The notes beneath the pieces were generated by a model that was not told the DNA's origin, did no database searches, and was given only the letters and a program-made list of their open reading frames with translations. Shown here piece after piece: positions 1,510 to 3,794 of a stretch of DNA of 64,000 bases. The translations under genes and the position numbers were made by a program. Source of the DNA: Promethearchaeota archaeon (GTDB taxonomy: Archaea; Asgardarchaeota; Lokiarchaeia; Sigyniarchaeales; SOKP01); contig JAHPZA010000006.1 in the NCBI GenBank assembly GCA_019058445.1, positions 448,001 to 512,000 on the forward strand, written 5' to 3'. Positions within the stretch are counted from its first letter, which is position 1. Every line of letters begins with the position of its first letter.

Positions 1510-1638
1510 ATGAAAATCGAAAAGAAAGAAAAAATTACAAGTGCCGGCTGCAAATGTGGCGGGGACTGCATCTCAACCAGCTGTAAGTGTGGAGGAGATT
1601 GCATTTCAATAAGCTGCAAATGCGGTGGCGATTGCTAA
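1510..1638 (+). CDS. Cys-rich 42-aa peptide, putative RiPP precursor (3x CKCGGDC)
   Basis: MKIEKKEKITSAGCKCGGDCISTSCKCGGDCISISCKCGGDC*; the CKCGGDC copies differ only at synonymous positions; immediately upstream of rSAM/SPASM gene. Confidence 0.85.
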   Translation: MKIEKKEKITSAGCKCGGDCISTSCKCGGDCISISCKCGGDC

Positions 1639-1656
1639 ACCTCTAAAAATCTTTCA

Positions 1657-1668
1657 TTTTTTTTTTTT
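1657..1668 (+). terminator. Oligo-T (T12) terminator after peptide gene
   Basis: T12 tract 19 nt after the stop codon; archaeal intrinsic terminator signature. Confidence 0.55.
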
Positions 1669-1725
1669 AAAACTTTATCATTTATAATATCACAATTTTA
1701 ATAAATTCAAACCTTATTTTCATCA

Positions 1726-2985
1726 ATGAATCTCAAAGATATTCCATCCATACCCCATTATATTGTTTTAAGAAGATATGAAGAAATTAATATCTTTGAT
1801 TTGAAAAATGACGAGTCTTTTGTTATCGATGATGAGGCTTATTCAGTCTTAAAGCTTATAAATGGGATTGTTTCTGTTGAAAATCTTCTTGGCAATTATC
1901 CAGAAAAAAAGAGACAAGAAGTTAGAGAAGCGTTAAATGATTTTCATGAATTAAATATTGTCAAGTTAAATTCTAATAGTATGCCAGAAAAATCAACAGG
2001 AATAATAGATCCTATTAAATTACCTGAAAAGAATATTTTTAATCCCCCGTACTTAAAGAATCTAATGATTAACATCACTGAAAAATGTAATTTAACTTGT
2101 AAACACTGCTATATTACTAATAAAAATCCTACAGATTTTCCTTTTGATAAATTAAAAGAAATAATAAAAGAATTTTATGAACTCCAAGGAATTAAATTAG
2201 TATTAACGGGAGGAGAACCATTATTATATTCCAGTTTGATAGAATTATTACGATATCTTAAGGATATACCCCTAATAAAAGTACTACTATCAAACGGAGT
2301 TTTAATAAAAGATAATCCTGAACTTATTGACCTATTAAGGGATAATTACTTTGAAGTTTTTGTAAGTATCGATGGATTAAAAGGGACTCATAATGATTTT
2401 AGAGATGCCAATTGCTTTCAAGATTCAATAGATGGAATAAAGACCTTGTTAAAAGAAGGGATAACAGTGTCAGTCAATACAATGGTTCATAAACAAAACC
2501 TTAATGAGTTTGATGAGATGTATAATTTATTTAAATCATTAGAACACATCAAAAATTGGTCAATAGACGTTCCCACCTTCGATATAACAACCCCTAAATC
2601 GATTCGAGATAAATATGAAATAACGGCAGAACAAGGGGGTGCAATTTTGAGAGATTATGGATGGGGTGAATATCATAGTTCAGAAAGTTATGATTTTGCC
2701 TGTGGACCTAATATTATGGCTATTGATGTGCTTGGTGTTGTTACCAAATGTGGTTTCTTCTATAATGAGAATATAGGGAATGTGTTTGAACTGGGCCTTA
2801 AAAAGAGCTGGGAGTTAATTCAGAAGAATTTGAATTGGAGGATCCCGGAATTAGAATGTAACAAACTGGATTGTGAATATCTTGAAGCATGTCGTGGAGG
2901 TTGTAGATATCGAGCATATCAAGCAACAGGAAATATGTGTGGAATAGATTCATTTAAATGTGCGCAATTTGGAAGATTAAATTAA
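1726..2985 (+). CDS. Radical SAM/SPASM peptide maturase with N-terminal PqqD-like RRE
   Basis: CNLTCKHC (CxxxCxxC), TGGEP, SIDG; C-terminal C-x15-C...Cx4Cx5Cx3C...C SPASM cysteines; N-terminal ~85 aa with RRE-like pattern. Confidence 0.9.
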   Translation: MNLKDIPSIPHYIVLRRYEEINIFDLKNDESFVIDDEAYSVLKLINGIVSVENLLGNYPEKKRQEVREALNDFHELNIVKLNSNSMPEKSTGIIDPIKLPEKNIFNPPYLKNLMINITEKCNLTCKHCYITNKNPTDFPFDKLKEIIKEFYELQGIKLVLTGGEPLLYSSLIELLRYLKDIPLIKVLLSNGVLIKDNPELIDLLRDNYFEVFVSIDGLKGTHNDFRDANCFQDSIDGIKTLLKEGITVSVNTMVHKQNLNEFDEMYNLFKSLEHIKNWSIDVPTFDITTPKSIRDKYEITAEQGGAILRDYGWGEYHSSESYDFACGPNIMAIDVLGVVTKCGFFYNENIGNVFELGLKKSWELIQKNLNWRIPELECNKLDCEYLEACRGGCRYRAYQATGNMCGIDSFKCAQFGRLN

Positions 2986-3058
2986 TGAAATTAAAAAAGA
3001 AAATTAATTTTAAAATAATTAAACAAAATAGAAATAAAATTCTTAATAGGTGTATATT

Positions 3059-3304
3059 ATGGCTAAAAAACATGAAATTTTAAGAACGGAAGCAGATATT
3101 AGCCCTCTTAACCGTCAGTTAATCAACCATGTATGTCATAAATGTAATTTTTATCATGAAGAACAAGAATATTGGGAAAGAGAGTATGAATGCGCTGCTT
3201 ATAAATTTATTCGTCAGTTAGTTGAAGAAAAAAAAATTACAATTGACCAAATCGATGATATTTTTACCAAGGTTGATTTAAATCCCGAAAGAGACTTAAG
3301 ATAG
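3059..3304 (+). CDS. Small hypothetical protein with CxxC...C motif
   Basis: VCHKCNFY...YECAAY; ATG at 3059 follows AGGTG SD; co-directional with rSAM. Confidence 0.65.
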   Translation: MAKKHEILRTEADISPLNRQLINHVCHKCNFYHEEQEYWEREYECAAYKFIRQLVEEKKITIDQIDDIFTKVDLNPERDLR

Positions 3305-3362
3305 CCTCTAAATCTTTTAAATAGAAATTAAAAAAAAAAAATAAATGATTTTTTTCTCCCAG

Positions 3363-3794
3363 TTATTGTAAATTCTGCACGAGTTCCTCAAATTTTTTAA
3401 TGGCGCCATCATTCTCTCTTTCGACACATCCAATATCCCCGATGTGTTCCAACTGTGGAAATCTTTTTTGAATTCCACTACATGCCTTTTTCCACATATC
3501 AGGCCCTCCTGATGTCCCAAAGCAAATTAATTTCTTATTTTGAATATTTTGCTTTTTAATAACTTTTAAAAGACTTTTTAATGTACGTGCGGGTGCCATC
3601 GCATGAGTACATGATCCAAAGACGAGTAAATCATATGGATCAAAAAAACTGTCATTGCTCTGGATTTGAGATTTAATATCTTTGTCTCGATACATGTCCA
3701 CTTCATGGCCATTTTTCTGAAGAACTTCCCCCATTTTATTGGCTAATTGTTCAGTATTTCCTGACTTAGTATTATAAATTATAATTGATTTCAT
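3363..3794 (-). CDS. Flavodoxin
   Basis: IIYNTKSGNTEQLA FMN phosphate loop, DLLVFGSCT, FGTSG. Confidence 0.85.
   Translation of the reverse strand: MKSIIIYNTKSGNTEQLANKMGEVLQKNGHEVDMYRDKDIKSQIQSNDSFFDPYDLLVFGSCTHAMAPARTLKSLLKVIKKQNIQNKKLICFGTSGGPDMWKKACSGIQKRFPQLEHIGDIGCVERENDGAIKKFEELVQNLQ

Follow-up and report, generated by a model that had tools for sequence, protein, structure and literature searches.

A 64,000-nt window of a Promethearchaeota archaeon genome (contig JAHPZA010000006.1, positions 448,001 to 512,000, here G000:C6:448001-512000; the genome has 4.6 Mb in 10 contigs) carries near its start a previously undescribed three-gene module that extends from Nitrospirota to Asgard archaea. 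The module consists of a tiny cysteine-rich peptide, a radical S-adenosylmethionine (radical SAM) enzyme with a SPASM domain and an N-terminal recognition element (RRE) for peptides synthesized ribosomally and modified post-translationally (RiPPs), and an 81-residue protein with three cysteines, called P81 below. Our best explanation, to which we give a somewhat better than even chance, is that the peptide is the substrate of the adjacent enzyme, is modified under the guidance of its leader, and yields an intracellular product for Ni/Co handling. The module has the following features.

1510-1638, plus strand: putative precursor peptide gene, 42 residues (13-residue Lys-rich leader and three CKCGGDC heptads; the last residue is Cys)
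1657-1668, plus strand: run of 12 T between the peptide stop codon and the maturase gene, read from the sequence
1726-2985, plus strand: RRE-radical SAM-SPASM maturase, 419 residues (RRE at about 6-82, CX3CX2C at 121-128, SPASM cysteines at 326-412)
3059-3304, plus strand: P81, three-Cys helical partner protein, 81 residues (invariant C26, C29, F31 and C45)

The peptide gene and its distribution

The first-pass annotation had described a 42-residue open reading frame (ORF) with three CKCGGDC heptads, 87 nt before a radical SAM gene, and we found it as described. The heptads are spaced by 11 residues (a 33-nt period), the stop codon follows the final Cys immediately, and every difference among the three 21-nt heptad copies is synonymous. 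The 87-nt spacer to the maturase gene contains the T12 run, which is likely an oligo-T terminator or attenuator of archaeal type.

The peptide gene is real. Selection on the peptide had been proposed from this one sequence, and orthologues in 20 related genomes bear it out. In an alignment of 46 heptads from 16 orthologous genes, C-K-C-G-x-x-C is invariant and the codons are freely mixed (TGC/TGT about 45/55, AAA/AAG 28/18, Gly by four codons). Since the residues are invariant and their codons mixed, purifying selection, as read from the alignment, acts on the peptide reading frame. Leader residues K5, K6 and K8 are also conserved among the orthologues, and the linkers between heptads have 0, 1, 3, 4 or 5 residues. 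Heptad positions 5-6 differ between Asgard genomes (GD, GG, SA, ST, SG, SS, DS), and the set across orthologues also includes CG, KS and AS. The alignment has these two positions mostly alike inside one gene (GD-GD-GD, GG-GG-GG, DS-DS-DS) and different between genomes, which points to concerted evolution of the repeats or to their having been re-duplicated recently.

Gene callers nearly always miss this ORF: just two clusters, both hypothetical, were present among 5.8 billion proteins. The peptide had no Pfam or NCBIfam match at E ≤ 0.1, with metallothionein and SCIFF/other precursor models included, the heptad strings were not mentioned in the literature searched, and no curated family or paper found there matches these peptides. 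The core is, as first supposed, foreign to described families. Archaeal RiPP surveys mention Asgard radical SAM clusters only generally (PMC12144867). Searching positions 1-10500 of the window with Rfam at E ≤ 1 gave no riboswitch or other RNA, and a bacterial promoter/terminator scan, which is ill-suited to archaea, did not rise above shuffled sequence. An antisense 60-residue ORF at 1437-1619 was dropped as a mirror of the peptide coding frame.

Peptide and enzyme genes occur together. The first orthologous peptides were found flanking orthologues of the enzyme gene, whose closest homologues bear the names Promethearchaeota, Lokiarchaeota or Hodarchaeota. We ran a two-heptad degenerate DNA pattern over 400 Asgard genomes, with the reversed pattern as control, and found matches in 18 genomes, all in one family and all 18 with an orthologue of the enzyme; the control gave 0. 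Hence, the check across Asgard genomes proposed at first pass came out in favor of co-occurrence. Variant peptides were present in two more genomes, one with a single repeat and 20 residues (G168) and one with two CKCGGDAC units of 8 residues (G162), which brings the total to 20 of the 23 enzyme-bearing genomes of the family. Two of the remaining three have the enzyme at a contig edge, and the third is G275. The peptide gene is adjacent to the enzyme gene, 0.5-0.8 kb off or divergent in 11 genomes. One genome has two copies of the peptide gene on separate contigs (G159:C124:2865-2942 and G159:C275:25167-25244).

The system had been described as an Asgard-archaeal RiPP locus, but it is not specific to Asgard archaea: single-heptad, 20-residue versions lie beside distant homologues of the enzyme in many bacterial and archaeal phyla. 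We compared 30 distant loci of the enzyme family (28-40% identity, full-length match) with an outgroup of 50 radical SAM-SPASM loci from the same scan, examining each distant locus for a peptide within 3.5 kb of the enzyme gene and using a hidden Markov model (HMM) for P81-like proteins.

30 family loci: tiny peptide within 3.5 kb in 20; P81-like HMM match in 19
50 outgroup radical SAM-SPASM loci: tiny peptide within 3.5 kb in 0; P81-like HMM match in 0

The family loci come from Nitrospirota, Magnetobacterium, Desulfobacterales, Geobacteraceae, Actinomycetota, Dehalococcoidia, Rokubacteria, Geoglobus and Methanobacteriota. A short-ORF rescan of the distant loci gave peptides of 20-21 residues with the form M-x-I-[KR]-K-[VI]-x-[KR]-K-x4-C-K-C-x-x-S-C, most of which end on Cys and sit just before or after the enzyme gene. 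Since these peptides are of like form, the Asgard peptide is, by sequence, a multiplied version of a widespread peptide, with the same 13-residue leader and the C-K-C-x-x-x-C heptad present one to three times. A CACKKCC variant is encoded on the opposite strand at one distant Asgard locus.

No further conserved neighbour was found among 35 distant loci, where protease, exporter and flavodoxin genes are not conserved. A neighbour cluster of 18 loci was rejected, being apparently an antisense frame of the enzyme gene, as judged from an example ORF. At several bacterial loci (L098, L104; Nitrospirota and related) the module lies amid rubrerythrin, ferredoxin, flavodiiron and rhodanese genes, and L098 has a second radical SAM-SPASM gene beside it.

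The enzyme, its predicted leader binding and P81

The enzyme has an RRE, a radical SAM domain and a SPASM domain. Pfam Radical_SAM matches residues 115-268 (1.7e-22), and the CX3CX2C motif (C121/C125/C128) is invariant across 70 homologues. Seven more cysteines are invariant in the same set (326, 342, 378, 383, 389, 393 and 412); they constitute the full SPASM set, enough for two auxiliary clusters, with the spacing C-x15-C ... C-x4-C-x5-C-x3-C ... C. The SPASM cysteines of the annotation were therefore well called. SPASM families of NCBIfam match the enzyme in two stretches; the Pfam SPASM model itself gave no report at E ≤ 0.1.

An AlphaFold2 model (predicted local distance difference test score, pLDDT, 90.4) has three strands (13-17, 21-25, 30-34) and three helices (36-42, 51-55, 60-75) in the N-terminal domain, the arrangement of an RRE. 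Over about 460 columns its best PDB matches by fold were SuiB, CteB, SkfB and TigE, followed by anSME. For a profile of the first ~105 residues the top two PDB matches were PqqD (5sxy, E 0.012) and the N-domain of TigE (E 0.07), which are marginal scores to expected targets. These results agree with the PqqD-like N-terminus that was noted first.

All NCBIfam matches of the enzyme are SPASM-type families and lie far under their cut-offs: NirJ/AhbD at about 111 bits, ScmE at 80 (cut-off 400), the mycofactocin maturase at 76 (265), the ACGX maturase TIGR04340 at 68.5 (400), StsB at 67.4 (625) and PapB at 59 (340). The family of CrpC, TIGR04463, was outside the best 25 of the 89 matches, the lowest of those listed having 55 bits. 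The enzyme falls in the broad class of RRE-dependent radical SAM/SPASM peptide maturases; the class is known, and the precursor, the partner and the regulatory link described below are not.

We predicted the peptide-enzyme complex from custom alignments in three runs, with three controls. The interface score ipSAE was 0.79 (0.81, 0.79 and 0.76 for the runs), and the best control had 0.00; the mark for docking is reached by 58 of 80 solved complexes and by 2 of 110 mismatched pairs. The runs have at least 57% of contacts in common, with a partner pLDDT of at least 44. Peptide residues 1-14 make confident contacts with residues 22, 29-38, 41, 65-76 and 309-318 of the enzyme, and the predicted position of the leader is along beta3 and alpha3 of the RRE. 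Within the contact region E30, D35, E37 and L42 vary little or not at all among the 70 homologues. The Lys-rich leader is predicted by these models to dock on the RRE of the enzyme. Together with phyletic co-occurrence and adjacency, this prediction agrees with the original pairing of peptide and enzyme.

P81 is the fixed third component of the module. The annotation had noted a small Cys protein as an incidental neighbour; its presence at 3059-3304 was right and its incidental status was not, as it is a partner in 19/19 orthologous and 19/30 distant loci. In each of the 19 orthologous loci the P81 gene comes immediately after the maturase gene, and in some it overlaps the maturase stop codon. 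The model is confident, compact and helical (pLDDT 91). Foldseek gave no PDB match at E ≤ 0.001, the best hit of a wide structural search (Z 4.1) was inside the noise for helical models, the ESM Atlas gave hypothetical clusters only, and no Pfam or NCBIfam family matched. A profile search found 223 representatives at E ≤ 0.001, in single (47-90 residues) and double (100-146 residues) forms, with variable N-termini and a constant Cys-bearing core. P81 would serve as a small accessory subunit that binds metal or FeS, or else as a second (ancestral) substrate. One representative, P0287 (474 residues), has a response-regulator receiver, a PAS domain and a partial HisKA_3, then a C-terminal double P81-like domain; it is either a real fusion, and would then hint that the three-Cys domain has a role in sensing, or an artefact of gene calling.

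P81 also bears on a rival reading, which we consider improbable: the enzyme acts on P81, and the peptide, of a metallothionein-like or Ni/Co-binding kind, goes unmodified and is a functional or regulatory neighbour only. Consistent with this, the small P81-like form of other taxa is encoded directly upstream of the enzyme gene and overlaps its start, the usual place of a precursor, and P81 identity among relatives (63-100%) is higher than that of the enzyme. The peptide gene is, moreover, sometimes kilobases from the enzyme gene. However, the confident compact fold and the variable N-terminus, in which no leader is conserved, fit a folded partner better than a leader-core precursor, and the tiny peptide tracks the enzyme across phyla, with five or six loci having the peptide beside the enzyme and no P81-like gene near. 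An unmodified peptide would likewise have no need of its conserved 13-residue leader, which is predicted to dock on the RRE.

An operator in common with cbiM

The peptide gene and a Ni/Co uptake gene of the window have a common promoter element, which the annotation had overlooked. The features concerned are given below, together with the one NikR-like ORF of the genome.

1312-1349, plus strand: distal operator, a 38-nt element (TCATAC-N15-TCATAC, core 1323-1349)
1411-1437, plus strand: proximal operator (TCATAT-N15-TCATAC), followed about 20 nt downstream by a TATA-like box at 1458-1467
9093-9119, minus strand: operator before cbiM, with the same motif, which cbiM promoters of relatives have too
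8301-8972, minus strand: cbiM, S component of Ni/Co energy-coupling factor (ECF)-type uptake, putatively co-regulated (Pfam CbiM, 7e-59)
7998-8297, minus strand: PDGLE/CbiN-like small membrane partner of cbiM (Pfam PDGLE 6.6e-5, below cut-off; NCBIfam CbiN weak)
G000:C2:159412-159612 (L109 1474-1866), minus strand: NikR-like ORF, 130 residues (RHH_1 1.8e-6; NikR_C 22 bits, at cut-off)

The 38-nt element recurs reverse-complemented at 9093-9130, about 120 nt upstream of cbiM, with 34 of 38 positions identical (89%), and at ≤8 mismatches the 4.6-Mb genome has exactly these two copies. NCBIfam CbiM models score under their cut-offs for the cbiM product. Across 281 kb of related loci we found 30 sites of the form TCATAY-N15-TCATAY, where the genome-wide rate would give about 0.7; peptide genes have 26 of them upstream, cbiM has 3 upstream, and 1 lies elsewhere. 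One or two sites lie within 200 nt upstream of 16/17 orthologous peptide genes, and the proximal one is always just before 'tttaaata'. The full operator is also present in the cbiM promoters of five more relatives, one of them without a peptide; the cbiM promoters of other relatives have a TCATAC-N15-GTAATAY variant. Counted loosely over the whole genome, TCATAY-N15-TCATAY shows no enrichment compared with other spacings (14 vs 3-15), and specificity is in the long form only. At 9031-9060 and in relatives' cbiM promoters we also noted palindromes such as ACTATTTTATAAAATAGT between TCATAC and GTAATA, so there may be a second site type in cbiM promoters.

The E. coli NikR site is GTATGA-N16-TCATAC (PMC7055735). 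The operator hexamer TCATAC equals the E. coli NikR half-site and the 21-bp spacing also matches, but the repeat is direct here and inverted in E. coli. Since the operator is common to the peptide promoter and cbiM, this DNA evidence suggests a role of the module in Ni/Co handling in this lineage.

The common operator would also suit an unmodified metal binder, as would the Cys-X-Cys units of the peptide, Cys-X-Cys motifs being classic metal ligands; against this, no metallothionein family matches it. For a secreted, bacteriocin-like sacti- or ranthipeptide the operator counts the other way, because the peptide gene is putatively co-regulated with a metal importer. Such an antimicrobial product would fit the enzyme architecture and its best structural matches, which are sactipeptide, ranthipeptide and streptide maturases. 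However, conserved genes for a transporter, a leader protease or immunity are lacking, and the core hardly changes from bacteria through to Asgard archaea, so that we hold this explanation to be very unlikely. The near-constant core across phyla and the lack of export genes disfavor an antibiotic and favor a cofactor-like or metal-handling product.

Related systems and the function of the module

Among the closest known systems are SCIFF (CteA/CteB), the ranthi- and sactipeptides and PapB/freyrasin, all with an N-terminal RRE and a radical SAM enzyme with a two-cluster SPASM domain beside a peptide that is short and rich in Cys. The top fold matches of the enzyme include CteB (5why/5wgg), with the same predicted mode of leader binding on the RRE. 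Unlike SCIFF and ranthipeptide systems, the enzyme here falls short of the curated models, there is no conserved Thr/Asp/Glu acceptor at i+3/i+4, and the module has an obligatory 81-residue partner and a core conserved across phyla. SuiB, the streptide maturase, is the best full-length structural match, RRE included (E 1e-16, TM 0.66), and its substrate SuiA also has a conserved Lys; in comparison, identity to SuiB is 17%, and the Lys-Trp C-C link of streptide has no counterpart in a peptide without aromatic residues.

CrpC of Methanococcus voltae is an archaeal RRE-radical SAM-SPASM enzyme in TIGR04463, whose substrate CrpA has repeated Cys motifs; the large protein CrpA carries ten copies of a 17-residue motif and C-x-x-Q/D acceptors, and the Crp cluster has a second small gene and expression tied to metal/sulfur supply (pyrite) (PMC13692751). 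Our module likewise combines such an archaeal enzyme with a repeated-Cys substrate and a small gene, but the substrate here has 20-42 residues. Metallothioneins and the NikR-controlled Ni-storage protein Hpn of Helicobacter pylori (PMC7055735) resemble the peptide in being small Cys-rich Cys-X-Cys products with a control site in common with a Ni/Co importer, and differ in that the peptide here has no family match, a conserved leader, a dedicated radical SAM enzyme and a direct-repeat operator. The ACGX-repeat system (TIGR04340 maturase) also has a radical SAM-SPASM enzyme, but the score is far under the cut-off and the repeat unit is different. The ACGX peptide consists of tandem short Cys-Gly repeats.

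PqqA/PqqD/PqqE and MftA/MftB/MftC have a tiny conserved peptide, a small partner and a radical SAM-SPASM enzyme, and PqqD is the top N-terminal profile match. By contrast, the enzyme here carries the RRE as a fused domain, the small partner is helical, bears Cys and is without an RRE fold, and the scores are far under the model cut-offs. To a further alternative we give a small chance: after cross-linking, the heptad would be excised as a small cofactor or chelator, as with PqqA/PQQ (pyrroloquinoline quinone) and MftA/mycofactocin, and the Asgard form would give three units per translation. The three-part make-up of the module, a near-constant C-terminal core that is conserved across phyla and not hypervariable, a peptide that ends exactly at this core and a repeat number of 1 to 3 are all in its favor. 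However, no protease or other tailoring gene is conserved near the module, the mycofactocin maturase model is far from matched, and PqqE is a distant fold match (6c8v, rank 34). The linkers can also be absent or nearly so (CKCGGGC-I-CKCGGGC), with no obvious cleavage site.

We infer the chemistry and physiological role of our best explanation, leader-guided modification of the peptide by its neighbouring enzyme, as follows. The basic 13-residue leader (M-x-I-[KR]-K-[VI]-x-[KR]-K...) would sit as a beta-strand on beta3/alpha3 of the RRE, near a conserved acidic patch of E30, D35 and E37, and would feed the Cys heptad or heptads into the three-[4Fe-4S] radical SAM/SPASM active site. The enzyme would then modify the heptads, and by analogy with CteB, PapB and CrpC the likeliest chemistry is thioether formation, with cross-links from Cys to an alpha-carbon or to the Lys side chain. 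The Cys-Asp link at Cx2D/Cx4D that was first envisaged fails: orthologues have G, S, A or T in place of Asp, and no conserved C-x3-D/E acceptor motif is present, heptad positions 5-6 being variable across orthologues. This lack of Asp conservation excludes such a link as the general mechanism and makes Cys-Asp chemistry of the PapB kind unlikely. Since no protease or exporter is conserved, the product would probably remain in the cell with its leader attached. In this Asgard family the peptide gene has its own promoter with two operator copies, the operator being in common with cbiM, and the peptide would probably be co-expressed with Ni/Co uptake and act as a thiolate-rich Ni/Co chelator, buffer or chaperone.

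Several results weigh against this explanation. G275, which is 97% complete, has the enzyme and P81 and no peptide by two patterns; six genomes have the peptide gene 3.5-9 kb off or on another contig; and 10/30 distant loci are without a peptide within 3.5 kb. The near-invariant heptad Lys is replaced at L033 (CAC) and L150 (CEC), and Asp, Gly and the linkers vary among peptides. The modification chemistry cannot be read from sequence, with Lys alone near-invariant besides Cys. Confident docking is limited to the leader, the core of the peptide is not confidently placed, and the pLDDT of the peptide itself is <50 in the complex model; since solved RRE-leader complexes (SuiB, CteB) exist, resemblance to these may partly lie behind the docking pass. 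The true substrate of the enzyme might be P81. As to regulation, the NikR-like ORF is weak (NCBIfam 62 bits vs 111), with no evident HxH...C ligand set on inspection, and the cbiM link was seen in this Asgard family only, there being no cbiM within 3.5 kb of non-Asgard loci.

A broader proposal goes beyond our best explanation, and we offer it tentatively, at well under an even chance. A new radical SAM-matured thiolate-rich peptide, or a chelator or cofactor derived from it, would handle Ni/Co in anaerobes from Nitrospirota/Desulfobacterota to Archaeoglobi/Asgard; the Asgard form would carry three units per peptide and belong to the Ni/Co-uptake regulon, and P81 would be a dedicated carrier or co-substrate.

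Other features of the window stand apart from the module. The first is the flavodoxin that the annotation had counted as part of the locus.

3363-3794, minus strand: flavodoxin (Pfam Flavodoxin_3/5/1)

This short-chain flavodoxin adjoins the module in this genome only; with none beside any of the 19 orthologous enzyme genes, we rejected it as a member of the locus. It would make a plausible reductant but lacks conservation alongside the module. Two copies of a direct repeat of 75 nt, with 84% identity, lie 1686 nt apart at 5324-5398 and 7010-7084; they comprise the 5' end of the GNAT gene and a copy upstream of it. Positions 9471-10036 have tandem 66-nt (22-codon) repeats, leucine-rich-repeat-like on reading, in and before an ORF at 9603-10142.

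RRE-bearing radical SAM/SPASM enzymes are a known peptide-modifying route. What is distinct here is an unrecorded family of 20-residue precursors with a constant C-K-C-x-x-x-C end and an unrecorded family of small three-Cys partners with no known fold. Conservation of the core over bacterial and archaeal phyla points to a housekeeping or cofactor-like product, not a weapon. Asgard archaea depend on Ni and Co enzymes, and the operator link to cbiM provides a testable tie between a modified peptide and their Ni/Co economy.

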